A stretch of DNA of 64,000 nucleotides. Origin: Thermoplasmata archaeon UBA61 (GTDB lineage Archaea > Thermoplasmatota > Thermoplasmata > Lutacidiplasmatales > UBA184). Below, piece by piece: positions 36,581 to 55,000 of this stretch (position 1 is its first letter; each line of letters begins with the position of its first letter). The stretch is from contig DASW01000007.1 of assembly GCA_002503985.1 (NCBI GenBank), positions 108,435-172,434 on the forward strand, given 5' to 3'. Both the position numbers and the translations under genes were made by a program. A model generated the notes under the pieces. It was not told the DNA's origin and did no database searches. It saw only the letters and a program-made list of their open reading frames with translations.

Positions 36581-36689
36581 TTCGTTCCTCCGATGTCGAC
36601 CCGGACGGCTAGCCGCGTTGTGGACGGGCTTTCCCTCTAAGGTCGACGGAACCGACACAGTCCGTGAACAGAAGAACGGCAGGAGAAAA

Positions 36690-37922
36690 ATGAGTAGCAG
36701 CCAAGCAGGAACGAGTGCGCCACCGACAAGTGAGGCCGGAACTCCGGCAATCCAACGGCAAAAACGAGGCCGTGGCCCGATGATCGCGGTGGTTGCAGTG
36801 ATCGTCGTCGTCATCCTCGTGCTGGTCGTCGGGTGGTCGGCGGGATGGTTCAACAGTAGCAGCAGCAGCTCCAAAGGAACGTCGGGATGCACGCTCCCTA
36901 GTGTGGTCCAACTCAAGGGCGAAGGGTCGACTCTGGTCGCTCCCTTGATGGACCAGTGGGCGACATCCTACTGGAACGGAGCAGCCGTCACGTATGACTC
37001 CGCAGGGAGTTCGGCGGGTATCCAAGCTATCACGGCGAAGACCGTGGATTTCGGAGCCAGCGATGCTCCTCTCACCTACGCTCAACGTGTGGCCGCGCCG
37101 GGGATTCTAACGATTCCCGAGTCGGCCGGCGGTGTCGTCCCGATCTACAACTTGCCCGGCGTATCCGCGGACCTGAACTTCAACGGGAGCGTCCTCGCCC
37201 AGATGTTTGACGGCGGGATAACGAACTGGAACAACTCGGCTCTCCAGACCCTGAACCCCCACGTCGTCCTACCGGTCCAGACCATCTTCCCCGTCCACCG
37301 GACGGGCGGAAGCGGAACCACGTTCATCTTTACGAGCTTCATGAGCGTGGAGAACGCCGCGTGGGCCCATACCTACGGTAAGAACACAGCCTGGCCCACC
37401 AACATCACGATCGGAGGCGGAGCCTCGGGGAACGGCGGCGAAGCGTCCACGGTTCAAACTACGCCGTATTCGATCGGTTACGTCGACCTGAACTACGCGC
37501 TGAACGCGGGGTCCGGGGTCGGTGTCGGGAACGTCCAGAACCCCAAGGGGGACTTCATCCATGCGACGGTGGCCAACACCGAGTCCGCGCTTGTCGACTC
37601 GAGCGTCGTGCTTCCCGCGGGAACGGGTGACTGGTACAACGTCTCGTTGCTCAACGCACCGGGCGCGAACGACTACCCGATCACGTCCCTTACGTACGTG
37701 CTAGTCTACCAGAACCTGAACGCGTTCAGCAGCTACACGCTGACGAACGCGGAGAATGTGGTCGACTTCTTGCACTGGATCGTGGCGGTCGGACAGAATG
37801 ACTCGGCGCTGCTCTACTACGTCCCCTTGACCTCGGCCATCGTGAGCGCTGACATCGCGTCCATCAACTCGATTACCTTTGGCACGCAGACCATCCCAGT
37901 CTGCGTCCCGAGCTCGAGCTAG
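36690..37922 (+). CDS. pstS: phosphate ABC transporter substrate-binding protein
   Basis: AGGAGAAAA RBS. N-terminal TM/lipobox-like anchor with a Ser-rich linker. PstS-like fold. Confidence 0.85.
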   Translation: MSSSQAGTSAPPTSEAGTPAIQRQKRGRGPMIAVVAVIVVVILVLVVGWSAGWFNSSSSSSKGTSGCTLPSVVQLKGEGSTLVAPLMDQWATSYWNGAAVTYDSAGSSAGIQAITAKTVDFGASDAPLTYAQRVAAPGILTIPESAGGVVPIYNLPGVSADLNFNGSVLAQMFDGGITNWNNSALQTLNPHVVLPVQTIFPVHRTGGSGTTFIFTSFMSVENAAWAHTYGKNTAWPTNITIGGGASGNGGEASTVQTTPYSIGYVDLNYALNAGSGVGVGNVQNPKGDFIHATVANTESALVDSSVVLPAGTGDWYNVSLLNAPGANDYPITSLTYVLVYQNLNAFSSYTLTNAENVVDFLHWIVAVGQNDSALLYYVPLTSAIVSADIASINSITFGTQTIPVCVPSSS

Positions 37923-37957
37923 TCGAGAGGCCGGGCGGACCCACCGAGGTTCTCCGG

Positions 37958-38962
37958 ATGGAGCCGCCAACCCTTTCCAATTCTTCTTCTTCCTCGACAC
38001 CGGTTATTCCCCGCAGGGCACCCCGGCGGTCTCGACCGACGTCCCGGTGGCCCGACCGGGTGTTCTTTGGCATCGTCACCGCCGTAGGGGTCTCGGTCAT
38101 TGGTCTCGCGGCGGCGATCGTCGGGATCCTCGCCTACGGCTCCCGCTATTCGATCCAGGTCTTCGGCTTCTCGTTCCTCTGGGGGACGGTCTGGAGCCCC
38201 ACTACCAACGTCTTTGGGGTGGTGCCGGTCGTCGTCGGAACGCTACTCACGAGCGCCATCGCCCTCCTCATCGCTATCCCGCTCGCCCTAGGCTCGGCGA
38301 TCTTCCTCACGACCCACGCGCCGCGATGGCTCCGCGGTCCGGCGGGTACCGCGGTCGAGCTCCTCGCGGCAGTTCCCTCCGTGATCTATGGGCTCTGGGG
38401 AATCTATGTGGTCCATCCCTACATGGCGTCGACCATCGAACCCGGATTGAAGCAGTACCTCGGGTTCACCGGCCTCTTTGACGGCACGCCGATCGGGCTC
38501 GACGTGCTCACCGCGAGCGTGATCCTCGCGATCATGGTCATCCCTACCATCTGCGCCATTAGCCGGGACACGCTGGCCGCGGTCCCCCAGGCCCAGAAGG
38601 AGGCCGCCCTCAGTCTGGGCGCTACCGACTGGGAGACAACCCGCGTTGCCATGATCCCCTACGCCCGATCTGGGATCATCGGCGGCATTATTCTCGGACT
38701 CGGACGAGCGCTGGGCGAAACGATGGCCGTGACCATGGTGATCGGCAACGCTGACCGGATCCCGACTTCCCTCTTGTCGCAGGGTCAGACGATTGCGAGC
38801 CTCATCGCGAACGAGCTGCTCAGTAACAGCGGACCTCTCCAGGAGTCCGCCATCCTCGAGGCCGGTCTCATCCTACTGGTCATCGCTCTCTCGGTGAACA
38901 TCATCGCCCGGCTCCTGGTGTGGCGCGTGCTCAAGGGTGGGGGAGGGGGAATCGTCGAATGA
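37958..38962 (+). CDS. pstC: phosphate ABC transporter permease
   Basis: 6 TM. EAA-like loop region. Confidence 0.9.
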   Translation: MEPPTLSNSSSSSTPVIPRRAPRRSRPTSRWPDRVFFGIVTAVGVSVIGLAAAIVGILAYGSRYSIQVFGFSFLWGTVWSPTTNVFGVVPVVVGTLLTSAIALLIAIPLALGSAIFLTTHAPRWLRGPAGTAVELLAAVPSVIYGLWGIYVVHPYMASTIEPGLKQYLGFTGLFDGTPIGLDVLTASVILAIMVIPTICAISRDTLAAVPQAQKEAALSLGATDWETTRVAMIPYARSGIIGGIILGLGRALGETMAVTMVIGNADRIPTSLLSQGQTIASLIANELLSNSGPLQESAILEAGLILLVIALSVNIIARLLVWRVLKGGGGGIVE

Positions 38963-39840
38963 GGAAATTCGACCGCTACGCTCGCCGCAAGCTCTTGAGC
39001 CAGATCATTGCCGTGCTCACTGGGCTCTGCGTCCTAGCCGTCCTCTACCCACTCGTGAGCATCGTGTACGAGTCGTTCCTTCAAGGAGGGGCCGTTCTCT
39101 TCCAGGCCCAGTTCCTCACGTCGGAGGCACCCAACGCCTGTTCGGCAATCTCGTGCAAGACCGTCGGAATCGGACCCGCCGTTCAGGGGACGCTGATTGT
39201 CGTCGGCCTCGCCGCGGCCATCTCGGTCCCGGTGGGCATCCTCGCCGCCATCTTCGCGTCCGAGTACCGCGCTCGGGGCCTCGGGCGGGCGGTCAGCTTT
39301 ATCGCGGACGTCCTCACCGGAGTACCCTCCATCATCATGGGGGCGTTCATCTACGGTTACTTCGTCATCTACTACCCGCAAATCGCCCTCAGCTTCTACA
39401 CGGGCGCACTCGCTCTTTCCGCCATCATGATCCCGATCGTCGTGCGGACGACCGAGGAGGCCCTACGAGTGGTCCCCAACTCCATCCGGGAAGCCGCACT
39501 GGCCCTCGGCATCTCGAAGTGGAAGGCCACGCTTCGAATTGTCCTGGTCGCCTCGTTGCCGGGCGTCGCCACAGGGGTCCTGCTCGCGGTCATGCGAGCC
39601 GCGGGCGAAGCGGCCCCGCTTCTCTTTACCCTGGGCTACTCCACGCTCTGGTTCCAGGGCTTCAACCACCCGGGGGCGAACCTACCGATCCTGATCTACA
39701 CCTTCGCTCTGAGCCCGTACTCGAACCAGGTTAAGGTCGCCTGGGGCGCCACGCTTTTCCTCCTCATCCTCATCCTTGTCGTGAATGTGATTTCGCGACT
39801 GGCGATCCATCGGATGCGGGTCCGGATGGGAGGAATCTAG
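38959..39840 (+). CDS. pstA: phosphate ABC transporter permease
   Basis: ATGA overlap with pstC. 6 TM. Confidence 0.9.
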   Translation: MRKFDRYARRKLLSQIIAVLTGLCVLAVLYPLVSIVYESFLQGGAVLFQAQFLTSEAPNACSAISCKTVGIGPAVQGTLIVVGLAAAISVPVGILAAIFASEYRARGLGRAVSFIADVLTGVPSIIMGAFIYGYFVIYYPQIALSFYTGALALSAIMIPIVVRTTEEALRVVPNSIREAALALGISKWKATLRIVLVASLPGVATGVLLAVMRAAGEAAPLLFTLGYSTLWFQGFNHPGANLPILIYTFALSPYSNQVKVAWGATLFLLILILVVNVISRLAIHRMRVRMGGI

Positions 39841-39846
39841 AGTACC

Positions 39847-40602
39847 ATGAACCCAACCAAGCTCAAGGTCGACCACCTCACTGCCTACTACAGCGAGAAA
39901 GCCGCGATCACCGATGTCTCCATCGAGTTCCCCGAACGAGCCGTCAGCGCCATCATCGGACCGTCTGGCTGCGGAAAGTCGACGTTGATCCGCTGCCTCA
40001 ACCGTATGCACGAGACCGTCGTCCGGACCCGGGTGGAAGGGCAGGTCCTGCTCGACTCGGAGGATATCTACCAGCTTGACCCCGTGCGGGTGCGCCGACG
40101 GATCGGGATGGTCTTTCAGAAGCCAAATCCGTTCGTCACGATGTCCATCTACAACAACGTGAGCGCCGCGCTTCGATTCAACGGACGACCTTCGAGGGAG
40201 GAGACCGACCGGCAGGTGGTGCGCAGCCTCCAGCAGGCGGCCCTCTGGGACGAGGTCAAGGAACGGATCGACGCGCCCGCGGTCTCCCTCTCCGGCGGCC
40301 AGCAGCAGCGGCTCTGCATCGCGCGGGCACTTGCGGCGGAACCCGAGGTCCTTCTCATGGACGAGCCGTGCTCGGCCCTGGACCCAATCGCCACCGCGAA
40401 GATCGAGGAACTGATCAAGCAGTTGAAGACGGAGTACACGCTCGTGATCGTCACGCACAACATGCAGCAGGCGGCCCGCGTCGCCGATTACACCGCGTTC
40501 ATGTACCTCGGAAAGCTCATCGAGTTCGGACCGACCGAGGAGTTGTTCGAACGGCCGAAGGATTCTCTCACGGAAGCGTACATCACAGGAAGGTTCGGAT
40601 GA
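39847..40602 (+). CDS. pstB: phosphate ABC transporter ATP-binding protein
   Basis: Walker [10 protein letters not shown], signature LSGGQQQR, Walker B LLMDEP. Confidence 0.95.
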
Positions 40603-41360
40603 ACAAAGATCCCCTCGCCGACACAGGACGACCCCGCGGTTACGACCTCGAGATCCGTCAGCTGAAGGCTCGCGCGGTGGCGATGGGAGAATGGGCGTTC
40701 GCGATGGTCCGGGACGGATGGCGAGCGTTCTGCGGGGGGGACCTCGTGGCCGCGCAGGCCGTTCTCGACCGAGGTACCGAGCTCGACCGGCTCGATGAGG
40801 ACATCGAGCATGCAGCCATCGCCTTCCTCGTCCTTCGCCAGCCCACGGCCGGCGACCTGCGGACCGCCGCCGGTTTGCTGAAGATCACCACGCATCTTGA
40901 CCGGATCGGTCGGCTCGGGTTCGACATGGCCCGAATCACCACCGAGGGCGCTCCCAGTGAACCCGCGGACCTCCGAGAGGTTCTCGAACGGATGGACTCC
41001 GTGGTCGAATCGATGGTCAGCCAATGCCTCGAGGCCTTGGGACACGACCGAGCGGACCTCGCTCGCGACCTGTTCCGCAGGGACGATGAGGTCGACCAGC
41101 TCCATCGCGATGCCAACCGGATTATCCTACGGGAGCTGAACGCGAAAACCAGCAATACGACCCGGGTCGCGGACGACCTACTCGTGGCGCGTCATTTCGA
41201 GCGAATCGCCGACAATGCCTGCAAGGTTGGGGAGAAGACGGTCTATGCACTCAGGGGTCAACGACGGTCGGAGTACCTGCCCCGCCACCGCTACATACCC
41301 TACACCCTCGAGGGACCGACGTCGACACCGAGAACGACAGATGATTCGCCTCCCGTCTGA
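40599..41360 (+). CDS. phoU: phosphate uptake regulator
   Basis: ATGA overlap with pstB. Two PhoU repeats. Confidence 0.85.
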
Positions 41361-41489: not shown

Positions 41490-41864
41490 GTGCCCTACAA
41501 GGATCCTGCTAAGCGACGTGCGTACAACCTGGCCTATCGGCGAGAGTACTATCGGAGTCACAAGGTCGAATACCTCGCCAAGAACCGGGTTCGGAAGAGG
41601 GCGGCCCGACAATTCCTCTCAGGTGTGAAGCGACGCAATCCTTGCGCCCGATGCGGAGAATCCGACTTGCGATGCCTCGACTTTCATCATCGAGGTGGTC
41701 ATGAGAAACTCGCAGGGTTGTCTATCATGGCAACGGACGGGGCTGCGATTGCCTCCCTGGAAAGGGAACTGCGCAAATGTATCGTCCTTTGCAAGAACTG
41801 CCACGCGAAGGAACACTTCAAAGGGACCGGCGATTCAGGGAAACGGCCGGGGACGCTCCCGTAG
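41490..41864 (+). CDS. free-standing HNH endonuclease
   Basis: Motifs CARCG...DFHH...CKNCH. GTG start. The 3' end overlaps the tRNA 5' end by ~10 nt. Confidence 0.75.
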   Translation: MPYKDPAKRRAYNLAYRREYYRSHKVEYLAKNRVRKRAARQFLSGVKRRNPCARCGESDLRCLDFHHRGGHEKLAGLSIMATDGAAIASLERELRKCIVLCKNCHAKEHFKGTGDSGKRPGTLP

Positions 41865-41954
41865 TCTAGTCCGGTCAAGGATAGAGGGCCTTCGAGGCGC
41901 CCCATGGGGCGTCGAGGAAACCCTCCAACGCGGGTTCGAATCCCGCCGGGAGCA
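41855..41954 (+). tRNA. intron-containing tRNA, probably tRNA-Glu(UUC); ~25-nt intron at about 41895-41919
   Basis: 7-bp acceptor stem GCTCCCG/CGGGAGC. D-loop AGTCCGGTCAA. T-arm GCGGG-TTCGAAT-CCCGC. Discriminator A. Anticodon stem GAGGG/CCCTC is interrupted by a 25-nt insert that folds as a relaxed bulge-helix-bulge. The spliced loop would be CCTTCGA. Confidence 0.6.
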
Positions 41955-41997
41955 TCCCAAACATGGTTTAATACCGCCGTACTGACATGCCGAAACC

Positions 41998-43302
41998 GTG
42001 CCTCGGTCTCCGATGGGCGGTATCGAGATCCGCGAGTTCCTTTCCCTTCCGAGCCTCAGGGCTTGGTATGAGAACGTAGCTCGAGGGTCACGGATCACGG
42101 CCGACGTCTACTCTCGTTCCCTACGCCTATTCTGTCACCTGACAGAGAAGGACCCATCCTCGCTGCTTCGACTTGCGGAGCCACAGCTCCATTCAATCCT
42201 GCTCGAGTTCGTGACCGCCGAGGAGAAACGGAAGCAGGCGGGCAGCTCGACGGCGACCCACCTCAAGGCGGTGAAGTCGTGGCTCGCGTTCAACGGTATC
42301 CGCATCACCCGACCCGTCAAGGTCCGTCGCGTGCAGGAGACGCCGACACTCGCGGAAGAGCGTACCCCCACCCAAGACGAGCTGCGCCGAGTGTTGCTCG
42401 CAGCGACCGCTCGAAACCGAGTATCCTGCGCGATGATGGCCTTCTCGGGCGTTCGTCCAGAAGTCCTCGGGAGTTACCTCGGCGATGACGGTCTCCGCGT
42501 CAAGGACCTCCCGGAGTTGCGGATCCGCGGCTCCGAGGTGCGTTTTGAGCGAACCCCGGCGACGGTGGTGGTCCGCTCCACTCTCTCCAAAGCCGGACAC
42601 CGATACTTCACGTTCCTGGGGGAAGAGGGGTGCGGGTACGTCGCCGAGTACCTCCGCTCGAGAGTCAAGGAGGGAGAGACCCTCGGTCCCGAGTCCGACA
42701 TCGTTCACGCTGAGGCCGGCCACAGCACCCTGCGTGGAGGAAACACGTTCATCCGGACAACCAACGTCGGGGATGGAATCCGTCTCGCCCTACGGAAGGG
42801 GGGTTTCCCGTGGCGTCCGTACGTGCTTCGTGCCTACTTCGATACCCAGTTGCTGCTTGCCGAGTCGAAGGGCAAGGTCGCCCACGACTACCGAGTGTTC
42901 TGGATGGGGCACAAGGGATCGATGGAGGCCCGGTACACGACCAACAAAGGACGCCTCCCGCAGAATCTCGTCGACGACATGCGCGATGCATACTGTCGGT
43001 GCGAACCGTTCCTGTCGACAGTCCCCTCACGAAACGAGCAAGATGCCCAAGCAAAGATGGCGAAGACCATGTTGATGGGCCTTGGCTACACGGAGGCAGA
43101 GCTCGCCGCGATTGACTTCGAGAATCTGGACGTCACGTTATTCCAAGACCTCGTCACGAAGAAGATGGTCTCCTCAGGTGCGGGTGCAAAGCAGCAGCTC
43201 GTAGACGCGGGCGATCTTCCCCGCTACCTCGAACAGGGCTGGACTGTCGTCACCGCGGTCAATGGACACCAAGTCGTGCTGAATCCACCGGCGTCACGAT
43301 AA
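41998..43302 (+). CDS. tyrosine recombinase/integrase (phage integrase family)
   Basis: C-terminal catalytic region with R...HxxR (HDYR)...Y. 434 aa. Lies immediately 3' of the tRNA. Confidence 0.85.
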   Translation: MPRSPMGGIEIREFLSLPSLRAWYENVARGSRITADVYSRSLRLFCHLTEKDPSSLLRLAEPQLHSILLEFVTAEEKRKQAGSSTATHLKAVKSWLAFNGIRITRPVKVRRVQETPTLAEERTPTQDELRRVLLAATARNRVSCAMMAFSGVRPEVLGSYLGDDGLRVKDLPELRIRGSEVRFERTPATVVVRSTLSKAGHRYFTFLGEEGCGYVAEYLRSRVKEGETLGPESDIVHAEAGHSTLRGGNTFIRTTNVGDGIRLALRKGGFPWRPYVLRAYFDTQLLLAESKGKVAHDYRVFWMGHKGSMEARYTTNKGRLPQNLVDDMRDAYCRCEPFLSTVPSRNEQDAQAKMAKTMLMGLGYTEAELAAIDFENLDVTLFQDLVTKKMVSSGAGAKQQLVDAGDLPRYLEQGWTVVTAVNGHQVVLNPPASR

Positions 43303-43648
43303 GCCGGAACCATCCGACCACCTTCGCCGCATACTCCTGACGGGGGATCTCGTCGGGTTCGCCAAGGACCAGGATCCGCAGAGGGTGGGAAGGGTCGAGA
43401 CTCTGGGCCATCGCCTTCATCTCGCGCAGGGAGACCAAGAGGTCCGCACCCCCGAAGCGCACGAGGGATGACGACCGGGAGGCAGTAGTGAGGGCTCCCG
43501 CCCTGGAAATCGGTGTTCCGCGGGCCATCCCGGTCGCCACCGAAGTCGTCGAGCGAGTCCTGCCATAAGAATCGAGTTTCCCCGATGAAGCGTGGAAGCT
43601 GCTCGGCGTCGAATCTCCGTTCAGATTCCGCCGGGTGAAGTAGCCCAA
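43259..43648 (-). CDS. hypothetical protein (weak)
   Basis: ORF only. Overlaps the integrase 3' end. Confidence 0.2.
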   Translation of the reverse strand: MGYFTRRNLNGDSTPSSFHASSGKLDSYGRTRSTTSVATGMARGTPISRAGALTTASRSSSLVRFGGADLLVSLREMKAMAQSLDPSHPLRILVLGEPDEIPRQEYAAKVVGWFRLIVTPVDSARLGVH

Positions 43649-43675: not shown

Positions 43676-46600
43676 ATGGACAGCGGACCCGTCCATCGCG
43701 AACTGTTGCTGCCGACGCCGACCAAGGACCCGCCCGAAATCCCGCCGCTCGTCTGGGCCTCGTCGACCCCGTTCTGGCTGGAGATCCACCGAGAGACGAC
43801 CGGACGAGTGCGATACTCGCTCGGTTCCAGCTCCGTATCGGACCTCGAGGCGATGCTCGCCTGCCTCGAGAGCACGCGCCCCCGCTTGACGGGAGGCGCG
43901 CCGATCGAATGCTTCGCCGCGACGCTCGTTCCGGAAGGGGTCTATGCTCGGGCCGTACCCGTCCAGAAGCACCACCACCTGCCCATCCAGGTCCAACCCA
44001 AGGTGGACAGCGCGAGCTTCCTTCTGCGGACCCTCGGTTCGCGGACGCTGCGCGACCACGACGTACTCCTGCAGCTCCTATTTCGAAGGGTCCGAGGCTG
44101 GGAATCGAGTTTCTTCTCGCCCCTCTACGATACGGTCGCCCAGCGCCAGGCCCACCAGCTGAGGGGCCAGATGGAGGTTCGCCAGGGCGAAGCCGCCTAT
44201 CACGTCGAGCTGAGGACGAACATCAAGGGACCACAGCCGGAGGAGGCGCTGACCGCGCTCGGTGCCTGGCTGGGGCAGTGGACGACCACTGGGGGAGTGC
44301 CCTGGAGGCGGTGGAAGGTCATCCGCCCCAGGGCGGAGTGGGGATTCCACGCGGCTCTGGCCAGCCACGACCTCCGCCGATACTCGAGCAGGAAGGCCCG
44401 TCGGAACGTTTCCGGCACGGAGCTCGCGCATCTGCTCAGCATACCTTGGGCCACTCACCACCCGGAATGCTCCTACGCCGGGGCGCCTCGTAGCCAGCCG
44501 GCGCCAGAACTCGTCGTGCGTCCGTCCTCTTCCCCCAGCTCCCCCGCCGACGCGCGGCTCATGGTTGGGGTCAGCGGCTCTCGCCGGGTCACACTTCCGC
44601 GGGAATGGAACCACGTTGCCATACTTGGCAGGACCCAGTCGGGTAAGTCGACTCTCGCCCTCAATCTCGTCCTCCAGACGCTGAGAAAACACCCCAACTC
44701 CACCGTCGTCGTGATCGAGCCCACCGGGACGCTGGTCGAGGGGATCGTGTCGCGACTTCCCCGCGAAATCGCCTTGGAGACCGTAGAGATCGACCCCGCC
44801 CACGCCACCTTCCAGCAGGGTGACGCGACCATGGTCTCGGTCCCCCTCTCGTTGCTCCTGCCGCCGGAGCGGGCGGACGAATTGCCTTCGGTCCGCGATC
44901 GCTGGTCGGAGGCGCTCGCGGGCGACCTCCTCGCCGCGATCCGGAGCGCCTGGGGGGAGGAGAGCATCGGGGGCCGGGCCGAATTCGTCCTGCGCGCACT
45001 GGTGCAGGGCCTCGCACTCACGCCCGGCTCGAACCTGGTCGACGCCTACCACATCCTCACTTCGAAAACCGCGCTCCAGCGGTTTGTCAAGTCCGCGCCG
45101 CCCGGGCCGCTGAGAGACTTCCTCGAACACCACCTCCCTCGCCTCGACTACACGTTCACGATGTCGTCCCTCGACAAGGTCGGTAAGGTTGCAACCAATT
45201 CCCTCCTCCGGATCGCGCTCTGCCAGCGGAACCACGCGGTCTCGTTCGACCGGCTGCTCGGGCATCGCCTGCTCCTCCTGAACCTCTCCAAGGCCGCCCT
45301 GGGAGCGGACGGGGCGAACTTCCTGGGGGCGATCTACCTAACCCAGCTCTGGGCCGCCGTTCAGCGGAGCGGACGGCCGGATCGGCCGGTCTACCTGGTC
45401 CTCGACGAGGTCCACAACTACGCCGTCCCGGCGCTCGCCGACATGCTGAGCGAGGGGGCGAAGTTCGGGCTCCACGTCGTGGCCATCACCCAGTACCTCC
45501 ACCGGGTGCCGCTGAGGGTCCGGGCGGCCCTCCTGGGGAACGTCGACGCTTGGTTGCTCTTCTCCCTCGGGACGGAGGACATGGACGACGCGTGGAAGAT
45601 CGTCAACGGGGAGACCCACGGGTGGCTACCTCAGGACCTCGTGGACGGGCTCCGGCCTTACGAAGTCGCGATGGCGGTGTCAGGAGACCTTCTGAAGCTG
45701 GGAACGCGCCCCAGCCCTCCTCCAGACGCGCAGGCGAACGACCTGAGGGACGTCGTGACGACGAGCTCTCGAAGGTATGCCCAGCCCGAGGACTCGGAGG
45801 CGTCGCCCTGGCTTGTGGGTCAGGAAATGGTTGAAGTCATACTCAGGGGGCTATCGATTCAGCCCAAGACACGCGAGGAGCTAGCCGCCGAGACTGCGCT
45901 GGCAGCAAATCGACTGGACGGAGCGCTCAGCGTCTCCATCACCTCTGGAGATATTGAACAAGAGCCGACTCACGGGAAGTTCCGCCTGACTTCCCGCGGA
46001 GACTTCCACCTCCGGGCGCTCGAGTCGCGGAGGAACGAGGGGTCGGACCACTCTGACCTGCTAGCGGACGGCGTAGCCCCTCTTCAGGGTCTCCGGCCAC
46101 GGGTCACGGCGCAGGGTGGAGTGCTCCCTCAGCCGGACGGCGTATTCGAATGGAACGGGCAGACCTACAATCTGGAGGTGGAGACGAGCAACTTGGTCAA
46201 GCACCCGGAACAGGTAGTCCGCAATCTTCGGAAGGCTCTGGCGATGGAACGACCGTGCCTCTTTGTAGTTCCGGACCGGGAAAGCGCCGGACAGCTCTTC
46301 CAAATCCTGGCCCGAGCCGCCCCCGAGGTTGCGCTTTGGAGGGAGTTCGGGCTGATGTGGAAGGAAGGGCCGGGAAAGTTCCTTCCCTACATCTCGGGCT
46401 CCGGGCAGCCATGGAGCTTCTTGATCGATGGAAGGGGGTCCGCGGGGGGTGTGGTTCCACCGAGCACAATCTTTCCCCAGGCCATCAGTTCGGCGGATTC
46501 GGACCTTTCCCGAGTGCACCTTCGTGTCAAACAACTCTTGGCCGAAGGCAAGTCAGAGGCGACCTTGCAAGACTTCGCCGATCTCTTCGGTCCTGGCCAG

Positions 46601-46819
46601 GGCGGTGTCCTCGAACGGCAGCGCCTTGGGATGGCCCTCATCGCCCTTGGTGTGAAGAGCCGAAGGGTCCGCACGGCGGACGGCCAGGAGCGCGTCTACG
46701 ACATCGGTCAACTGGCAGATTCGGTTGGCAGCTCACAAGACGGGGCTACGAGGCCCGCGGACCACAGTCGCAACGAAGGCGACAACGGGAACGATTCCGG
46801 GGTCGGACCGAACAACTGA
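43676..46819 (+). CDS. large HerA/FtsK-superfamily (DUF87-type) ATPase, candidate conjugative coupling/DNA-translocating ATPase
   Basis: Walker A GRTQSGKST and Walker B YLVLDEVHNY. 1047 aa with long N- and C-terminal extensions. Confidence 0.75.
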   Translation: MDSGPVHRELLLPTPTKDPPEIPPLVWASSTPFWLEIHRETTGRVRYSLGSSSVSDLEAMLACLESTRPRLTGGAPIECFAATLVPEGVYARAVPVQKHHHLPIQVQPKVDSASFLLRTLGSRTLRDHDVLLQLLFRRVRGWESSFFSPLYDTVAQRQAHQLRGQMEVRQGEAAYHVELRTNIKGPQPEEALTALGAWLGQWTTTGGVPWRRWKVIRPRAEWGFHAALASHDLRRYSSRKARRNVSGTELAHLLSIPWATHHPECSYAGAPRSQPAPELVVRPSSSPSSPADARLMVGVSGSRRVTLPREWNHVAILGRTQSGKSTLALNLVLQTLRKHPNSTVVVIEPTGTLVEGIVSRLPREIALETVEIDPAHATFQQGDATMVSVPLSLLLPPERADELPSVRDRWSEALAGDLLAAIRSAWGEESIGGRAEFVLRALVQGLALTPGSNLVDAYHILTSKTALQRFVKSAPPGPLRDFLEHHLPRLDYTFTMSSLDKVGKVATNSLLRIALCQRNHAVSFDRLLGHRLLLLNLSKAALGADGANFLGAIYLTQLWAAVQRSGRPDRPVYLVLDEVHNYAVPALADMLSEGAKFGLHVVAITQYLHRVPLRVRAALLGNVDAWLLFSLGTEDMDDAWKIVNGETHGWLPQDLVDGLRPYEVAMAVSGDLLKLGTRPSPPPDAQANDLRDVVTTSSRRYAQPEDSEASPWLVGQEMVEVILRGLSIQPKTREELAAETALAANRLDGALSVSITSGDIEQEPTHGKFRLTSRGDFHLRALESRRNEGSDHSDLLADGVAPLQGLRPRVTAQGGVLPQPDGVFEWNGQTYNLEVETSNLVKHPEQVVRNLRKALAMERPCLFVVPDRESAGQLFQILARAAPEVALWREFGLMWKEGPGKFLPYISGSGQPWSFLIDGRGSAGGVVPPSTIFPQAISSADSDLSRVHLRVKQLLAEGKSEATLQDFADLFGPGQGGVLERQRLGMALIALGVKSRRVRTADGQERVYDIGQLADSVGSSQDGATRPADHSRNEGDNGNDSGVGPNN

Positions 46820-47342: not shown

Positions 47343-48218
47343 TCACGCGGGGGCGGTTGCCGCATCCGAAATGAGCAACGCGCTCGCTGCGGCCCGTTCG
47401 AACCCCCGGGACCGCTCCGGGCTCACGCGCGGGCCAACCTCATGCGTAAGGATCTCGGTCGCAACCTGGTAGGCCGACCAGCGGGTGAGGAGCGCGTTGT
47501 GCGAGGCAGCTGCCTCCGCCCGCGCACCAATCGTGGTTGCGTAGACGCGGGGGAGCCCCGCCGCGATGAGCAAGGGTGTCACGTCCTCCGCGAGGACCTC
47601 ATCGCCCATCGCGTCCGCGTAGACCTGCAGCGCGTCCCGGAAGCGGCCCAGGATCGTGTGAATGGCCTTCTGGAGCATCGCCATCAGGTCCGTCTCCGAG
47701 GAGAGGTGGACCTCACGAAGCTCCACTAGGGAGTGCATTCCCGCATAGAGCTGGTTCGCGCAGGCGATCCGCACCCCCGTTCCCTCGGCCCGGACCGCCC
47801 AACTCCCGTCCAGGCTGTTCATCACTCGGACGCCGGGATAGACGGACTCCCCCGGCGCGAGCTCGTACCGGGTCCCGACCACGAGTCGGACCTCCATCCG
47901 ACGTCCTCCCGCGAAGAGGCGGATCTGCTCGCGGGGGAACACGGGGGCGTTCGCGTCCAGGACGGGGCGTTCCAGGGCCTCCCCGATGGCATGGACAGCT
48001 TCCGCGACCTCGCGGTGCTGCACGAGCTGGTAGCGGTCGCTCACGATCGACACGACCTGGGAGGTGTCCTTACGGCGGACGCCCCGGTAGGCCTCGAGGG
48101 GCTCCCCCTGGGGTCCATGTACGGGGACCAGGTCATAGAGGGGAACCTGGTCGGGAGTGACCACGGTCTCGTACGGTCGGCGCAGGTTCTGGCTTTCGGT
48201 CGGGTTCGAGGCTATCAT
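47343..48218 (-). CDS. DUF932-like phage/plasmid-associated protein
   Basis: Motif VMNSLDGSWA resembles the DUF932 signature NSxDGSxA. Confidence 0.55.
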   Translation of the reverse strand: MIASNPTESQNLRRPYETVVTPDQVPLYDLVPVHGPQGEPLEAYRGVRRKDTSQVVSIVSDRYQLVQHREVAEAVHAIGEALERPVLDANAPVFPREQIRLFAGGRRMEVRLVVGTRYELAPGESVYPGVRVMNSLDGSWAVRAEGTGVRIACANQLYAGMHSLVELREVHLSSETDLMAMLQKAIHTILGRFRDALQVYADAMGDEVLAEDVTPLLIAAGLPRVYATTIGARAEAAASHNALLTRWSAYQVATEILTHEVGPRVSPERSRGFERAAASALLISDAATAPA

Positions 48219-48420
48219 CGTTGTCCTCGGTCACGAGGGACAACGAGGGAGCCTCGCCAGAGGACTAGGTCCCTCGAGACGCGAGGGCACGGCTCGCGAG
48301 GTCAGCAATCTGCGGCACCCGCCTCAGGGTTCAGGGCGTGCTCCGCGTCCTCTATAGAAACAACGGGAACTCCGGACCGGAGCTGTCCTTCCGTGACCCC
48401 AAAGCACGCATAGAACTACG

Positions 48421-48510
48421 CCGCCTTGCGCCCGTCGCGCGCGAGCGTCTCGACCCGGCCCGGGGAGTCGCGACCGCCGCCCGCGCCACCTTCACGCGGG
48501 CGCGGTTAGG
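48421..48510. repeat. ~80-nt GC-rich intergenic repeat, copy 1
   Basis: gcgcccgtcgcgcgcgagcgtctcg...ggcccggggg...gcgacc.ccgcccgc...ccttcacg. Shared with 51421-51500 and partly with 49786-49860. Confidence 0.5.
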
Positions 48511-49408: not shown

Positions 49409-49627
49409 TCACGCGGTCTGGCTCTCTCCTGACTCGTGGTCTGAGTCTTCCGGACCAGAAGCAGGAACACCCTGGCGGAACTGGGTCTCGGTGATGCCAA
49501 AGCTCGCGTAGAATCGCGCCGCCTTCACCCAGTCCCGCCGGAGGACCTCCTCCGCTCCGGGCGTGCCCGAAATCGCCGCCCGGGCCGCCTTGACGCGCCC
49601 GCGCAGGTCGCGCAGCCTCCCCTTCAC
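49409..49627 (-). CDS. conserved small protein, paralog of the C-terminal domain of 58383..59288 (start unresolved)
   Basis: Motif RLRDLRGRVKAARA...ARFYA.FGITE.Q is shared with 58383..59288. Homology continues upstream to ~49790, but an in-frame stop at 49792-49794 and the absence of an in-frame ATG leave the real start unclear. Confidence 0.4.
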   Translation of the reverse strand: MKGRLRDLRGRVKAARAAISGTPGAEEVLRRDWVKAARFYASFGITETQFRQGVPASGPEDSDHESGESQTA

Positions 49628-49785
49628 GGCACGTTCGTCGGCTTCGCGAGAGTCGTCGGGGAGGCCGCTCGTGGTCTCCGAGACGCTGAACTGCCGGGCC
49701 GAAGTCGCAATCTCCTCCGCGTCCTCGTCTTCGTCCGGGCCGCCGAACGCGACCCGCGACTCGAACCGCGTTCGCGTCCGGGTCG

Positions 49786-49860
49786 CGCCGCATCACGCCC
49801 GTCGCTCGCGAGCGTCTCGGCCCGCGCGGGGGGGACCCGCGAGCGAAGCGAGGGGGGAGG
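49786..49860. repeat. ~80-nt intergenic repeat, partial copy
   Basis: cgcccgtcgctcgcgagcgtctcggcccgcgcggggggg matches the 5' half of the repeat consensus. Confidence 0.4.
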
Positions 49861-49889: not shown

Positions 49890-51374
49890 CTAATGAGCCT
49901 GGCCGGACGCGCCGTCGGGCGGGGGCGTGGTTGGCGAAGGCTTCGCCCGACGCTTGCTCCGCGTCAGGACGACCACCACCACGGCTGCGGCCACGAGCAG
50001 CGCAACGAGTCCCCCGACGATGTAGTACCCCGTCACCCCGGGGAATCCGAAGAGCCCCCGGGATGATCCGCCACCGCACGCGGAGGTTGAAAAGGTCACG
50101 TTCAGCTTGGTCGGGCCGCCCGCAACGGTCACGTTCCCTGAGGAAGGGCACGCGGTGTGGTTCGTTTGGTTGCTGACGGTGAAAGGAAACGTCCCGTTCG
50201 TCTCCGGGAACGTGATCGAAGTGTTGGTGGACGAGAGAGTCGTTCCTCCCACGGTCGCCGACCAGTTCGTCCCGGTAGGGAGGCCGGACTCGTGCACGGT
50301 CAGCCGGAAAATCTGAGGTAGGATGGTGATGTTGTTCGTGTCCAAATCGGCGACATAGACGTTGTGATTGGCCGGGTCATACGCGCTTCCGAAAGGTTCT
50401 TGTTGGACGGCTTGGGTCAAGACAATTCGGTTGGTATCAGGGTCGATGACTGTCACGTTGGACGCGGGCTGACCTCCGATATGGTACCTGTCGGTTACAT
50501 AGACGTAGCCATTGTACGGATCGTAGAGGGCGGACCCACATCCAGTGGCGATTGGGATTGTGGCAACTACCTCGTTGGTGGTTCCGTTCACTACACTGAC
50601 GACATTCGAAATGCCGGGCTGGTTCCCGTTCGTGCAAGCGTAAACGTCACCGTTCGAACCGGCGTACGCCACACCAGGGCCACCGCCTGATGGGTAAGCC
50701 TGCCCAACGACCCGATTGATTGTAGTGTTGATTACCGTCATGTTAGAGGGTATGGCATTTCCCTCGTTGGAAACGAACACCTTTCCGTTCGCCGGGTCGT
50801 AAGCGGCCCCATTCGGACCGGCTCCCACCGGAACGACTGCCACGACCGCGTTCCCATGGATCACGGTCACGTTGTCGCTGGTGAGGTCGGTCACGTAGAT
50901 GTCGCCGTTCGCGGGGTCAAAGACCTGTACGTGGGGGGCGCAACCGGTTGGGCACCCGTAAGCAAGGAGAGGGATGGTCCATTGGACCTGATTGGTCGAT
51001 GAGTTGATGGCGTAGACTCTGTAGACAGTCTCAGCGACGTAGACCATTCCGGTCGAGGAGTCTACCGCAAGCGTCCCGATTCCGAATGGCATCGGAATCC
51101 ACGCCACGACATGGTTCGTGGAGGTGTTGACCACGCTGATATTGCTCGAGCCGAAATTGGTTACGTAGAGAAGCCCGTTGACCGGATTGTACGCGACGCC
51201 GATTGGGCCGGCTCCGACCGGGAATGTGACATTCGCCGGCACTGCAGAAGCGAGTGCCGACTGGGAATGAGTTGGGCCACTACGGAACTGGCTGACATTC
51301 GCGACGGAGGGTACCAGGACCGCAACGACAACAACGATCGCGAGCACGGTGAGGAGGCGGCGTGGCGGCTCCAC
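49890..51374 (-). CDS. YVTN-family beta-propeller repeat surface protein with C-terminal TM anchor
   Basis: Repeated Y-V-T/A-N/D motifs (LLYVTNFGS, MVYVAE, DIYVTD, KVFVSN, YVYVTD, NVYVAD). C-terminal TM followed by RSKRRAK. Confidence 0.75.
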   Translation of the reverse strand: MEPPRRLLTVLAIVVVVAVLVPSVANVSQFRSGPTHSQSALASAVPANVTFPVGAGPIGVAYNPVNGLLYVTNFGSSNISVVNTSTNHVVAWIPMPFGIGTLAVDSSTGMVYVAETVYRVYAINSSTNQVQWTIPLLAYGCPTGCAPHVQVFDPANGDIYVTDLTSDNVTVIHGNAVVAVVPVGAGPNGAAYDPANGKVFVSNEGNAIPSNMTVINTTINRVVGQAYPSGGGPGVAYAGSNGDVYACTNGNQPGISNVVSVVNGTTNEVVATIPIATGCGSALYDPYNGYVYVTDRYHIGGQPASNVTVIDPDTNRIVLTQAVQQEPFGSAYDPANHNVYVADLDTNNITILPQIFRLTVHESGLPTGTNWSATVGGTTLSSTNTSITFPETNGTFPFTVSNQTNHTACPSSGNVTVAGGPTKLNVTFSTSACGGGSSRGLFGFPGVTGYYIVGGLVALLVAAAVVVVVLTRSKRRAKPSPTTPPPDGASGQAH

Positions 51375-51420
51375 GATTCTCTGAGGGCGTCACGCCGTAT
51401 ACACTTGGCCGTGAATCGTG

Positions 51421-51500
51421 GCGTGCGGCCGCCGTGCGCCCGTCGCGCGCGAGCGTCTCGGCTGGGCCCGGGGGGGTTTCGCGACCACCGCCCGCACTGC
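51421..51500. repeat. ~80-nt GC-rich intergenic repeat, copy 2
   Basis: Near-identical to 48421-48510 over ~75 nt. Confidence 0.5.
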
Positions 51501-51502
51501 CT

Positions 51503-52072
51503 TCACGAGGGTGGCTTGCCTCGAATCCGGAGTATAGTCCGTGGCCCACGACCGGATTGAGAGATGGTATGGACCTCCAATCCCGCGCCACGGGCGGATC
51601 CAAGAACCGCGTGAAATGCCTCCTGCGTGAGAGGGTTGTCCAGCGGATAGAGGGTTCGGATTTCGTGTTGCGCGAAGGGGTATGGCTGGCCGTTGGGCAA
51701 GGTGGGAGGCGAGAGCCACAGCGTGAGCTTTGCCTCGGGGTCGTTCCAGCGATAATCCTTGCTCCGACCTTTGGCATAAGCGAGACGAATCCCCGTAGCA
51801 GAAACCTCTAGCCGCACGGCGCCTGGCGAGAACATGAATATGGCTAGGGTGCACAGAAATCCGACCCCTACCAGGATGAGCGACGCCATTCCGATCGAGT
51901 AGAGGTTCGAGAAGAAGCCCGGTGTCGTCGCGATTACGCCAACTGCGATCGCGAGTAGAAGCACGAACCCTGCCGTGAAGATAATTTGGACGGTTCGAGA
52001 CCCCCCACGGTAGTCGTGTAGGGAAGCGACTGAAAGGTCGAAGACTGCGGAGGCGGCTGCTGATTCAGTCAT
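51503..52072 (-). CDS. membrane protein (3-4 TM) coupled to the giant surface protein gene
   Basis: Start overlaps the stop of 52069..58386 (ATGA). Confidence 0.5.
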   Translation of the reverse strand: MTESAAASAVFDLSVASLHDYRGGSRTVQIIFTAGFVLLLAIAVGVIATTPGFFSNLYSIGMASLILVGVGFLCTLAIFMFSPGAVRLEVSATGIRLAYAKGRSKDYRWNDPEAKLTLWLSPPTLPNGQPYPFAQHEIRTLYPLDNPLTQEAFHAVLGSARGAGLEVHTISQSGRGPRTILRIRGKPPS

Positions 52073-55000
52073 GATCCCTCGTGGAACTCGCCAAGCCCGA
52101 TTCCCAAGGATGTAAAGTCGAGGCCTGCGGTTAAGGCGTTAAGGACGAGAAGCGGGCCCGATCTGTCCGCGGGGTAAATCGCGAAGTCGATGAGATCCAG
52201 CGTTACACTCGTCCCGCTTACCCCCAGGGATGTCTCTTGCACTAGGCGATTTCCGGAGGCGCCCGCAATCCCGAGAGCGATACTTACTAGGGCGAGACCG
52301 AAAGCGACGGACGGCAGAATGAGTCCATCGCCCTGAAAGTATGCAGCTGCCAACAATCCGAGACCAATTTGAGTACTCAGCAGTGTCGCGGTCCAATCCG
52401 CCACACCCGCAAGTGCGTTCCAGTTTGTCGTCCAATTGCCGTCATTCTTTGCCGGAGGGCTTGTCGAGTTGGCCACACCCTCAGTAGCGTGAATGGCCAC
52501 GGCATTGATGAAAGTAACTTTCGAAAGCCCCGAGGTGTTGGGGGACGTAGACGATTCAATTGCTTGCAGAACCGCAGAGACGATGAGGCCGACGACGATT
52601 CCGACCAGGAGTCCCGCACCGAGGCTCAGCCCCATCAGTATCCCGATGACAACTTCAGCTACAACCGCTATCGCGATTCCGGTCAGGAACAGGGGACCGA
52701 GCAGCGCGTTCCAAAACGATGCGGCGTGAGCCTCGGAAACTGCCTTCCCAGCCACGGTGTCGCTCACCGCGCCCGAGAGACCCACCGATACGGACGAGCC
52801 GTAAGCCGAAATCGCGGCTTGGAGTGGAGCGAAGGCCGTTGCCAGGATGGCCTTCACGAACGAGATGATGTAGTTGAGGAGAGCTTGGAGGACCGTCCAC
52901 ATTGCAGTCCCGATGGCTCGCAACGCGGTCACGGTCTGGCTCACGAGAGCAGTGATTCCGAGCTTACTCGCGAGCGCGGCAGCTGCGTCGGCGAGGTAAG
53001 CTGCGGCGGCTGCGATCCCATTCCAGCCCACTGAGAAGAGCTTGGCAACGACGGTGACGACACCAGAGACGGCATTCCAAACGTAAGAGGCGGCCACGTC
53101 CCACCAAGGCTTGGAGGGAGGGGGAGGCTGCGAGGTCGATACAGGGGTGCCATAGGCACCGTCGTTTCGGTAGGTGGCGTTGGCGAGGGTAGTAACGACG
53201 TTGGAAGAGAGGCCGAGGGCGGGCAATCCTGCAGTCTCGTTGATGAGGTTCCCTGTAAGGTTGCCCGACTGGTTGAGAAGGAGACCGCCAAGGAGGTCGT
53301 TGAGTTCTGCGGCACTGGTCGTGAGGTTCGAGTTGTAGCCGGCGCTGGAGACATTGATCCAGAAGACGGCCTGGACCTGTCGGGACTGGTATCCGTTCTC
53401 GAGAGAGGGATTGGAGGCAACGCCCCCGAAGGCGCTCGGGTCGATGCCGGAGTAGATCTGGGTCGTGTTAGAGAAGACGTGGATGAACCCGGCCGAGGAC
53501 GGTCGATTTGTCGAGGTGTTGAGGACACGAGGCAACCAGTTGTAGGGGTTGAAAGTGAGGCTGGAGTCCTGATGCTGGGAGGGGACCTTCGCCGATGCGG
53601 TCGCATTGATCAGGGTCTGACCCAGAGGGCTGGCGAGGAACATGGCCCGGGGAATGAGCAGATTGTTAAGTCCCGGAAGAAGTGTGACAGTATACTTCCA
53701 GTTCGACTGAGGTCCGAAGACGCCACTGATCGCAATCTTGCTTGCGTTGGTTCCCGGGGGCGCCGTATCGTTGAGCACGAGCAGGTCGAAGTCCTGCTCG
53801 GCGGTGTAGCGGGAAAGCCCGGTGGGCAAGGGGGAGAGGGTCGAGTTGTTCGGCGGGGCGAGAATCCAGGTCGGGGCCTTCGAGTAGACGGGCAGGACTT
53901 GGTAGGTGAAGGAGATGCTAGGGGTTGCCCCGGCGCTGGGATACGAGACACTCTGTAGCTGGCCGTTCGCCAGGTCCACCTTGTAGTGCGGCGTGCTGGC
54001 GATGGCATAGACGGTGTTAGGCGAATTGCTCGTGGACTCGTTTTGGACAAGCGAGAGGTTGAGGTAGGCGAACTGTTCGGTGTTGGTGACAGGGAAGGTG
54101 ACGACAAACGACTTCGGAGAGGTGGAGCTTGGGAAGTTGGCTGTGCCACCGGAGCCGGCGGAGACCTGCACCGAGTATCCGCCGTAGTCCGTTCTAGCGG
54201 CTGAGTAATACGTAGCGGAAGAGTTCGCCGCGACGAACGCCGACACGCCATTTCCTGCGGCGTTGGCTGTATCCTTCCAGCCGGTAAGTGTCACCTGGAG
54301 GTCGGTTCCGCCTAGGGGGTTCACCTGTGCGCCGTCCGGAGCGCCATCGTTGGAAGTCGAAACCGCGAGGGGGTTCGCCCCCCAAGAGAGCTTTCCCCAC
54401 ACTGTCAGGGTCGGAGTCCCGTTCCATTGGCCCTCAACGGCTCGTAGAAAGTCAACCCCGCTGATTTCACTCTCCAGCTGGGTCCAGACGCCCCACAACA
54501 TCTGGAACGCCTGTCCCGACCAGAGCACTTCGGCCGCCCACGGAGATCCGTCACCGCTGTAGATCCCGTTCTTCGGATTCGGTGTGAGATTGGCGATGTT
54601 GGTCGCCAGGGGATACCCCTTCTCGTGGAGTCCTGGAGCGTACAAAACGTTCGAGCTGAACGGCCGGTATGTCGTGCTCTCATTCCATAGATTGTAAACA
54701 TCCCACCCAGAATTCAGCAACGACCAGCTCACCGCGAAGGTCAGGTTCCAGGTATCAAGCATCTGGCTTTCGGCGGTGTCCAACGTGTTCGGATCGAGTC
54801 CAAGCTCCTTTTCCACGAAGTCACTGACAAGCCCGTTCGTCGAGAACTTGGCTGGGTTTGCGGTAACGACGGCTTCGGAAGGAGCTATGCAGCTGGATGG
54901 CGGGCAGGTGTTCACCGGTCGGCCACCTGGCACCTGAGTATACGGCAACGGGATCGTCCAACCGGCCTCCTTCTCGACGTCGGTGAGCCCGTCGCCTGAG

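Follow-up and report, generated by a model that had tools for sequence, protein, structure and literature searches.

A tyrosine integrase of a widespread archaeal family at a probable attachment site in the tRNA-Glu(UUC) gene of an uncultured peat Thermoplasmata archaeon

The DNA analysed here, called the window below, is a stretch of 64,000 nucleotides (nt) of contig DASW01000007.1 from an uncultured peat Thermoplasmata archaeon (UBA61), in which a tRNA-Glu(UUC) gene is followed on the same strand by the gene of a tyrosine integrase (int). Positions 41940-41958 are very probably (roughly 0.85) a left attachment site (attL), at which an integrative mobile element, inserted at the 3′ end of this tRNA gene, has its left junction. 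An earlier note, made from the sequence alone, had proposed that the tRNA and the adjacent integrase form attL, and the proposal is borne out by empty and occupied alleles and right attachment sites (attR) in relatives, and by the position of int at loci throughout the integrase family. Coordinates refer to the window unless a relative is named; loci and contigs of relatives carry L-numbers. The features of the junction are as follows.

41855-41954, plus strand: intron-containing tRNA-Glu(UUC) gene (Rfam RF00005, 49.5 bits with a gathering score of 29, E=1.4e-7)
41855-41894, plus strand: tRNA exon 1
41895-41919, plus strand: tRNA intron of 25 nt at position 37/38, with a helix-bulge-helix-bulge-helix (hBHBh′) motif
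41920-41954, plus strand: tRNA exon 2
41940-41958, plus strand: att core within attL, the last 15 nt of the tRNA (ATCCCGCCGGGAGCA) plus TCCC, placed by allele comparison and attR junctions
41959-41997, plus strand: element-borne spacer from the core to int, identical in L002/L226 and nearly so in L013
41998-43302, plus strand: int, a tyrosine integrase of 434 amino acids (aa), recognised by its catalytic residues, a XerA profile match and a fold model
43259-43528, minus strand: orfX, convergent with int, overlapping its final 44 nt and conserved at its C-terminus
43543-43544, no strand: right end of a segment 100% identical between species, from the mismatch map and an assembly-graph branch point

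Empty and occupied alleles

Both states of the site are found in the sister species (the owner of L002, with PhoU P0125), whose housekeeping DNA is about 85% identical to that of the window. At least seven of its contigs are empty alleles without the integrase (L222-L225, L227, L228, L231), and three, from independent assemblies, are occupied by this integrase (L226, which equals L002, and L229 and L230). In the empty alleles the tRNA is followed by small open reading frames (ORFs), an aminotransferase and an aldehyde dehydrogenase, and the ATPase that follows the integrase in occupied alleles is missing as well as int. Empty and occupied sequences are identical through ...GGGAGCATCCC and unrelated beyond, splitting 4 nt past the end of the tRNA. 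The comparison with a relative lacking the insertion, suggested in the earlier note, is available within a single species. A third species is likewise polymorphic, being empty in L233, L235, L237 and L239 and occupied in L234 and L236. More distant relatives without the integrase, recovered through a metagenome scan for the 3′ end of this tRNA not followed by T, have other genes after the tRNA.

The opposite end of the element can be read in the third species. The right junction of L234 runs GTTGTGAACCAACTATAGTTCAC, then ATCCCGCCGGGAGCA, then TCCTAATTCC, and the chromosomal flank is that of the empty allele L233; in short form, the right end is GTGAACCAACTATAGTTCAC followed by ATCCCGCCGGGAGCA and the flank. 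L232, from another genome, opens with this element end and core, and the attR of L234/L236 and L232 keeps exactly ATCCCGCCGGGAGCA. The right end of the element bears a 6-bp inverted repeat, GTGAAC-N8-GTTCAC. In L081, a 15-nt repeat lies 3.6 kb downstream in the same register as the core. This was the only convincing attR within 10 kb among 56 family loci, in which downstream k-mer matches were no commoner than upstream ones. Because of the split point between alleles and the attR junctions in relatives, the att core is placed at the final 15 nt of the tRNA with at most 4 nt more. The 23-mer at the 3′ end of the tRNA occurs once in the window, with 0 occurrences expected by chance.

The arrangement suggests how integration would proceed. 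The attachment site of the element (attP) would lie about 40 nt upstream of int, with a core copying the last 15 nt of the tRNA and 3-4 further bases. The integrase, acting in the classical manner of lambda or pNOB8, would exchange strands in the core between attP and the chromosomal site (attB) in the tRNA, leaving int intact. From the established biology of tyrosine recombinases, Int would be expected to bind inverted core-type sites around the T-loop/acceptor region; strand exchange would then take place within ATCCCGCCGGGAGCATCC, and the tRNA would be rebuilt at attL. At attL the outcome would be a complete tRNA followed by int on the same strand; at attR, the opposite end, 15 nt of tRNA tail would be left. 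The tRNA-borne ATCCCGCCGGGAGCA is preceded by GGGTTCGA; an attR copy would instead follow GTGAAC-N8-GTTCAC, and the attP junction would consist of the element end, the core and AAACATGGTTTAATACC. The int promoter probably lies within the spacer 41959-41997, where a TATA-like TTTAATA box at 41967-41973 would drive int; in other family loci, GGTT(C/T)(A/G)A(A/T)ACC-like boxes are found upstream of int.

Three further observations concern these sites in relatives. Just past the tRNA, five integrase-less loci (L117, L129, L130, L144, L170) read ...GGGAGCA, CCTTTCACATTTCAC, CGGGAGCA, in which 8-9 nt of the tRNA 3′ end recur 14 nt downstream; the repeat may be the scar of a former integration. In L161 (tRNA-strand orientation) the tRNA-Glu at 10513-10588 is followed 1.38 kb on by a second copy of AATCCCGCCGGGAGCA at 11971-11985 with no integrase between the two; the second copy looks like a remnant or a non-autonomous mini-element. 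Lastly, the element right end at the same tRNA in L234 (12604-17665) carries a 986-aa MmeI/Eco57I-like restriction-modification fusion protein, a defence cargo.

The integrase and its family

The earlier note was right that a tyrosine recombinase gene directly follows the tRNA; the gap, given there as 44 nt, measures 43 nt from the tRNA 3′ end to the start of int. Public gene calls use an ATG at 42013, yielding a protein of 429 aa. The integrase starts with a SAM-like helical domain, followed by the catalytic domain, and ends in a conserved C-terminal extension of about 90 aa. Across 31 aligned homologues, R153, K198, Y275-x-x-R278 (Y275-V-L-R278), H305 and Y313 are invariant, so that the catalytic tyrosine, which had been singled out for checking, is present as Y313 with the rest of the active site. 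The family profile matches XerA of P. abyssi (4a8e, E=3.4e-5), with RPYVLR aligned to TPHQLR. The AlphaFold2 model (predicted local distance difference test, pLDDT, 80.1) has tyrosine recombinases as all of its top 28 Foldseek hits in the PDB (best E=2.7e-6), with XerA, IntI, Brujita Int, Cre, lambda Int and Tn1549 Int among its neighbours. No match to PF00589 (Phage_integrase) was obtained even at E<=10, and the sole Pfam match is Phage_int_SAM_1 (E=9.6e-4, below its cut-off). The miss is a matter of detection and not a mechanistic criterion. With a modelled two-domain fold and a full catalytic set, the protein is classed as a tyrosine recombinase, and it would be expected to exchange strands by covalent 3′-phosphotyrosine catalysis.

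The family is large. More than 1,977 homologues were found in the protein collection and 307 in species-representative genomes, mostly of Thermoplasmata; the other hosts are Bathyarchaeia, Nitrososphaerota, Hodarchaeaceae and Archaeoglobales. Mean column identity is 52% across phyla, and some genomes hold 2-4 copies, located at different tRNAs. In at least 56 of the 79 family loci over which tRNA association was counted, int is preceded on its own strand by a tRNA, at a distance of 35-114 nt. The targets comprise more than 12 tRNA species, including Ala-CGC, Ala-UGC, Glu, Lys, Val, Gly, Pro, Arg, Met, Ile, Trp and Ser. There are 18 loci without an Rfam tRNA upstream of int, several of which still hold tRNA 3′ halves, fragments or the bare 15-nt core. 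The loci at tRNA-Ala(CGC) are syntenic over 6-9.7 kb of the upstream 10 kb, and 0-1.8 kb of the downstream 10 kb is common to them, with the exception of one pair (L019/L023, 5.3 kb). Among the closer members of this group the integrases are 80-90% identical, compared with about 55-65% for flanking proteins. In L059 and L063 the tRNA-Glu core is inverted (GGTGCTCCCGGCGGGA) some 80-100 nt upstream of int, which suggests inversion events at att sites in some genomes.

Of 82 loci, 33 have a homologue of orfX, in about 25 cases at the same position and strand, convergent with int. Only its C-terminal 55 or so residues are conserved, with the motif DLxxLK..HPLR..GEPD..W, and searches of Pfam, PHROGs, NCBIfam and the PDB returned nothing significant. 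Together, int and orfX are a conserved integration module, in which orfX is a candidate accessory or directionality factor and may modulate directionality.

An identical module in front of different cargo

The region to the right of the module, and the genes that once flanked the site, include the following features.

43676-46819, plus strand: P-loop ATPase of the FtsK/HerA superfamily, 1047 aa, variant A cargo, matching coupling proteins of type IV secretion systems
47343-48218, minus strand: DUF932 / TIGR03299 'phage/plasmid-like protein', cargo (DUF932 1.4e-12; TIGR03299 8e-12; phrog_1221 1.4e-15)
58687-58927, no strand: strain-level breakpoint, rightwards of which L003, a third variant, is 99.7% identical from 58687 and leftwards of which it is unrelated
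16874-17839, plus strand: ADH_zinc_N, ancestral right-flank gene with an 81% aa orthologue in the empty-site right flank of L233
18858-21893, minus strand: D1, 1011 aa, ancestral right-flank gene with orthologues of 64-67% aa identity in L129, L144, L116 and L168

Compared with L002, the housekeeping genes of the window are 84.8% identical in nucleotides, the pst operon 65-72% and the ATPase gene 85.9%, whereas 41927-43543 is 100% identical throughout. This block is made up of the tRNA tail, int and orfX and is common to two species and to two cargo variants, A and B; the genes on either side of it are 84-86% identical. In the comparison with L002, identity is 100% for int and orfX, and at third codon positions 76-77% for core genes and 74% for the ATPase. 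L013, an independently assembled 1.8-Mb contig from a different study, has the same arrangement, and its int is 97% identical to that of the window (third positions 93.5%, with 60-71% for core genes). Measured by sequence divergence, int is evidently far younger than its flanks.

Variant B was found within the species of the window, in contig L214/L221. Upstream, where it holds the HNH gene to the left of the tRNA, the intron-containing tRNA, int and orfX, this contig is 99.8% identical to the window. Past 43543 it carries a 176-aa ORF, a 1077-aa ATPase, an IS110 and a GvpD-like ATPase. Variant B is 99.3% identical to L002 over 6.3 kb including the ATPase, the listed mismatches being confined to the tRNA region; the ATPase gene of the window is 86% identical to the variant B copy and 81% identical to that of L013. 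Other contigs end at 43543 (L217), 43481 (L218) and 41977 (L012), as expected at assembly-graph branch points, and one contig of 1569 bp holds just the tRNA and int. Recombination between related elements, such as a tandem integration with a subsequent deletion, best accounts for identical copies of int and orfX behind differing cargo. The breakpoint of L003 falls in a repeat also present at 49487-49776. L003 might have been the right part of variant B, but this was rejected because its GvpD-like ATPase is only 84% identical to that of L221.

The earlier note had expected a repeat of the tRNA 3′ segment downstream as attR. The sequence read for it covers 0-73.2 kb on both strands, that is, the window and 9.2 kb beyond, including 31 kb downstream of the tRNA. 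Searches with exact k-mers, fuzzy 16-23-mers (<=3 mismatches in 16 nt), the exact 9-mer CCGGGAGCA and the element-end motif did not recover it even at 9-nt resolution. As no attR lies within the 31 kb downstream, the right end of the island is not placed in this genome; it may have moved elsewhere or disappeared. The aminotransferase/aldehyde dehydrogenase cluster, which flanks the empty site on the chromosome of relatives, was sought in the same 73 kb and is absent. In integrase-less L129, L144, L116 and L168, D1 orthologues are situated 0.8-2.5 kb downstream of the tRNA, and in the window the D1 and ADH genes are 20-25 kb upstream of it and inverted. To judge from gene order, this placement would fit an inversion of the block from 22034 through the tRNA and into the island. 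A 182-nt collinear match between L158 and the extension at 69.9 kb was reduced to a 33-aa motif and dropped.

Several points weigh against an integrative element at this site. No second copy of the att core or of the end motif was found in the sequence read for attR. The ATPase beside int is as diverged between species as the core genes, which would also fit an old resident island in which only the int module was renewed. The integrase family was found in none of the IMG/VR viral contigs, PLSDB plasmids or INPHARED phages, and tblastn of the integrase against 72,556 PLSDB plasmid records found nothing at E<=1e-3. Neither a circular nor an excised form was seen, and no free replicon form is known. 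Moreover, all of the sequences compared are metagenome assemblies from related peat samples.

Part of this evidence is shared by a layered origin, in which only the module of about 1.6 kb (tRNA tail, int and orfX; 41940-43543) would be recent and the genes past 43544 older, whether vertically inherited or accumulated at a hot spot. The module would have been renewed by tandem integration and recombination with a resident, and the copy may no longer excise. The 100% identity between variants A and B stopping at 43543, the 1569-bp contig of tRNA and int alone, the divergence of the ATPase at the level of core genes, the lack of attR within 31 kb and the ancestral right flank inverted away all agree with it. 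However, no att core lies directly past orfX, so the module is not a self-contained mini-element here; the match of variant B to L002 extends through the ATPase, so int and cargo move together at least sometimes; and the empty sites of the sister species lack the ATPase as well as int. A layered origin is thus possible, but we regard it as unlikely. The integrative element remains the preferred reading, and this copy may still be mobile.

An old, immobile region is much less credible. The earlier note had reasoned that a tRNA-integrase-ATPase order conserved in all relatives with no attR would point to an ancient fixed region, and the integrase could then be a domesticated chromosomal recombinase beside the tRNA, with no current mobility. 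The order phoU-tRNA-int-ATPase is indeed common to three species (the window, L002 and L013), and conservation within the family is unusually high, as given by its mean column identity. However, integrase-less relatives, empty alleles and attR in relatives were all found; presence and absence vary inside one species, identical copies occur in species differing by about 15% elsewhere, several copies per genome are found at different tRNAs, and the downstream content is variable. Taken together, these observations make a fixed region very improbable.

The tRNA gene and the HNH gene upstream

The tRNA at 41855-41954, described in the earlier note as intron-containing, is the only RNA gene in the window by Rfam, and its cloverleaf fold has z=-4.5. 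It was missed by default ARAGORN; with the option -i it was found with the intron misplaced. The resulting Arg(tcg) model with a 2-nt intron was rejected, and Glu(UUC) with a 25-nt bulge-helix-bulge (BHB) intron was preferred on the basis of the gap in L002, the motif and the orthologues. The insert of 31 nt in the anticodon region forms a helix-bulge-helix-bulge-helix, with the anticodon stem GAGGG/CCCUC, a 4-bp central helix CCUU/GAGG and 3-nt bulges CGA and AAA. The intron is placed at 41895-41919 because of this motif and because the interval is the exact gap relative to the intron-less orthologue of L002, which ARAGORN calls tRNA-Glu(ttc). The BHB motif fits 10/10 intron-bearing orthologues, its central 4-bp helix being paired in 100% of cells and its outer helix in 89%. 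The intron is the tRNA's own and plays no part in integration.

The mature anticodon loop, CCUUCGA, gives Glu(UUC) and not Arg, with a C at position 33. A U at this position is near-universal in tRNAs. The C was found in place of U in the window, L002, L013, L028 and about 25 metagenome loci, and the loop CCUUCGA is held across many species with differing, compensating anticodon stems, with or without the intron; more distant relatives have the usual loop CUUUCGA.

To the left, the tRNA is overlapped by an endonuclease gene.

41490-41864, plus strand: HNH-family endonuclease ORF, 124 aa, GTG start, assigned by PHROG HNH families

This ORF matches phrog_2255 (E=2.3e-20) and phrog_3106 (E=1.1e-19), the Pfam HNH profile (PF01844) being not significant (E=2), and has C52xxC55, H66-H67 and C101xxC104-H105, the residues of an HNH (beta-beta-alpha-metal) motif with CxxC pairs on either side. 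Its overlap with the tRNA 5′ end, put at about 10 nt in the earlier note, is exactly 10 nt, and its TAG stop falls within the tRNA (positions 8-10). Public gene callers report just the final 45 codons. Among integrase-less relatives, L144 (60% aa, full length, equal overlap) and L155 (67% aa) have a homologue between phoU and the tRNA, and L115 has a frameshifted copy in the same spot; the gene is missing from the nearer relatives L002 and L013. Identity to L144 at first, second and third codon positions is 72/92/48% for HNH and 83/86/54% for phoU. Because it occupies the same place in integrase-less relatives and has a core-like codon pattern, the HNH gene is an old resident of the chromosomal side, outside the mobile element, which was lost in L002 and L013. 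The earlier inclusion of this gene in the signature of the island is not upheld.

The stop codon of the HNH gene is U8-A9-G10 of the tRNA (overlap 41855-41864), an overlap kept in L144. RNase P processing of a joint HNH-tRNA transcript would strip the stop codon from the HNH message.

A free-standing homing endonuclease at the tRNA locus could in principle have made the boundary or the intron, in line with an ORF that abuts and overlaps the tRNA, is missing from L002 and L013 and has a low third-position G+C of 0.64. However, the gene is in the same place in L144 and L155, with a divergence like that of neighbouring genes; the intron does not track it, L013 having the intron without HNH and L155 HNH without the intron; and the insertion junction is on the opposite side of the tRNA. 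An HNH-driven origin is consequently highly doubtful. Least credible of all are chimeric joins between co-occurring peat populations as the source of the identical int block and the occupied alleles: metagenome assemblies of related peat samples, with contigs often breaking at the tRNA and after int, would be open to them, but three independent assemblies contain the occupied allele of the sister species and at least seven contigs the empty one, the stretch in common on the left of the junction measures just 28 nt, too little for joins at k=141, and the 1.8-Mb contig L013 of a different study has the same arrangement with a 97% identical int.

Cargo, composition and repeats

The ATPase beside int has type IV secretion coupling proteins (TraD/VirD4/TrwB-like) as its closest matches (Pfam TrwB_AAD_bind 1.6e-5; NCBIfam SXT_TraD 9e-7), and tblastn matched it to plasmid 'type IV secretion system DNA-binding domain' proteins at E=5e-14. 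The island cargo as a whole comprises this coupling-protein-like ATPase, DUF932, large secreted-type proteins and IS110 copies. An integrative and conjugative element would be expected to combine a coupling protein with a VirB4/TrbE-type ATPase and a relaxase or its equivalent; no further transfer genes beyond the coupling-protein-like ATPase and DUF932 were recognised among the downstream ORFs scanned. The remaining features are listed here.

49890-58434, minus strand: cargo-like block of three ORFs, third-position G+C 0.65-0.73, which also holds a 189-aa ORF beside the two ORFs below
49890-51374, minus strand: NHL-repeat beta-propeller protein
52069-58434, minus strand: 2121-aa ORF without Pfam or family match
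60183-61277 and 61471-62559, minus strand: two IS110-family transposase genes (Pfam DEDD_Tnp_IS110 and Transposase_20)

The earlier note had suggested looking for a shift in GC skew and codon usage at 41955. Third-position G+C is lower downstream of the boundary (about 0.74) than upstream (about 0.82); however, the drop in G+C begins at about 35.6 kb, at the pst operon, and not at the junction. This operon (pstS-pstC-pstA-pstB-phoU, 36618-41360) is 64-72% identical at the nucleotide level between sister species, against 84-89% on either side, and is missing beside the tRNA in L153; it looks separately exchanged or fast-evolving.

Strong positive GC skew extends across the region of the 2121-aa ORF, 52069-58434. 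A 54-nt G+C-rich intergenic repeat follows minus-strand genes of the island (48419-48472, 49786-49839, 51427-51480) and recurs at 9003-9076 of L222, where it adjoins the sister species' empty att site; possible identities are a terminator and an element like the repetitive extragenic palindromes (REP-like). The 5′ regions of two minus-strand ORFs, 49487-49776 and 58612-58927, are paralogous and 78-97% identical, and the breakpoint of L003 is at the start of the second. Around the IS110 genes there is a 43-nt direct repeat (93% identical), at 59286-59328, about 0.9 kb before the first gene, and at 62582-62624, just past the second, which may reflect ends of the insertion sequences or a target duplication.

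Comparison with known systems

Bacterial tRNA islands and integrative and conjugative elements with P4-like integrases keep an intact tRNA at attL, with int beside it, and repeat part of the tRNA at attR; their cargo varies, and they are present or absent from strain to strain. The element described here follows the same overall logic, but in an archaeal host, with a different enzyme family and at a tRNA whose BHB intron is uninvolved in integration.

Among archaeal systems, pNOB8-type (class II) integrases have the signature R...YxxR...Y (PMC8371274), and their int gene, which does not contain attP, stays whole and ends up immediately beside the restored tRNA, both on one strand (PMC3293823). 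The integrase of the window resembles that of these conjugative plasmids of Sulfolobales in the signature (Y275-V-L-R278), in having attP outside the int ORF and an intact int beside a rebuilt tRNA on the same strand (PMC8371274, PMC3293823), and in a conjugation-type coupling ATPase nearby. It differs in lacking both a tblastn match in PLSDB (E<=1e-3) and PF00589; in its hosts, which are mesophilic peat Thermoplasmata and other uncultured archaea; and in its conserved C-terminal extension of about 90 aa, convergent partner ORF and short att core of 15-19 nt. By analogy, therefore, it would work like the pNOB8 type in its logic, whereas relatedness in sequence to integrases of the pNOB8 family of plasmids was not found.

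The 'suicidal' integrases of the SSV type, pTN3 and pT26-2 are also tyrosine recombinases with tRNA targets that leave a direct repeat of tRNA sequence. Unlike here, where int is unbroken and 40 nt separate the core from the ORF, their att lies inside int and the gene is split. The SNJ2 type of haloarchaeal pleolipoviruses uses an att site of 14 nt in a tRNA gene (PMC8371274). Both systems have a classical integrase, a short att in a tRNA gene and small co-encoded proteins, the role of orfX being a candidate one. However, integrases of the SNJ2 type carry Pfam Phage_integrase and are restricted to Halobacteria, and orfX is convergent and not co-transcribed. In lacking Pfam recognition and in its spread over archaeal classes and phyla, the family resembles fam30-08, an archaeal tyrosine recombinase family with no Pfam domain in several phyla (Badel et al. 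2021), and may correspond to it.

Implications

The kind of system is already known and its mechanism is classical; the conceptual gain is modest for that reason. Pfam-based censuses of archaeal integrases can overlook the family. The att core, the GTGAAC-N8-GTTCAC end motif and the partner ORF can serve as annotation aids for the limits of islands in archaeal metagenome-assembled genomes.

We know of no conjugation system in Thermoplasmata. It may be proposed, tentatively, that the tRNA tail, int and orfX form a portable cassette of a pan-archaeal, uncharacterised family with a conserved C-terminal domain and a dedicated partner, exchanged today between cargos and species in peat, and that the ATPase and DUF932 mark an element of conjugative type in Thermoplasmata; we consider this somewhat doubtful at present. 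What the natural empty, occupied and right-junction alleles document is the use of the last 15 nt of tRNAs by a widespread and unstudied family of archaeal integrases. They point to an element that is moving now between uncultured species of peat Thermoplasmata, of which the copy in the window may be a mobile member.

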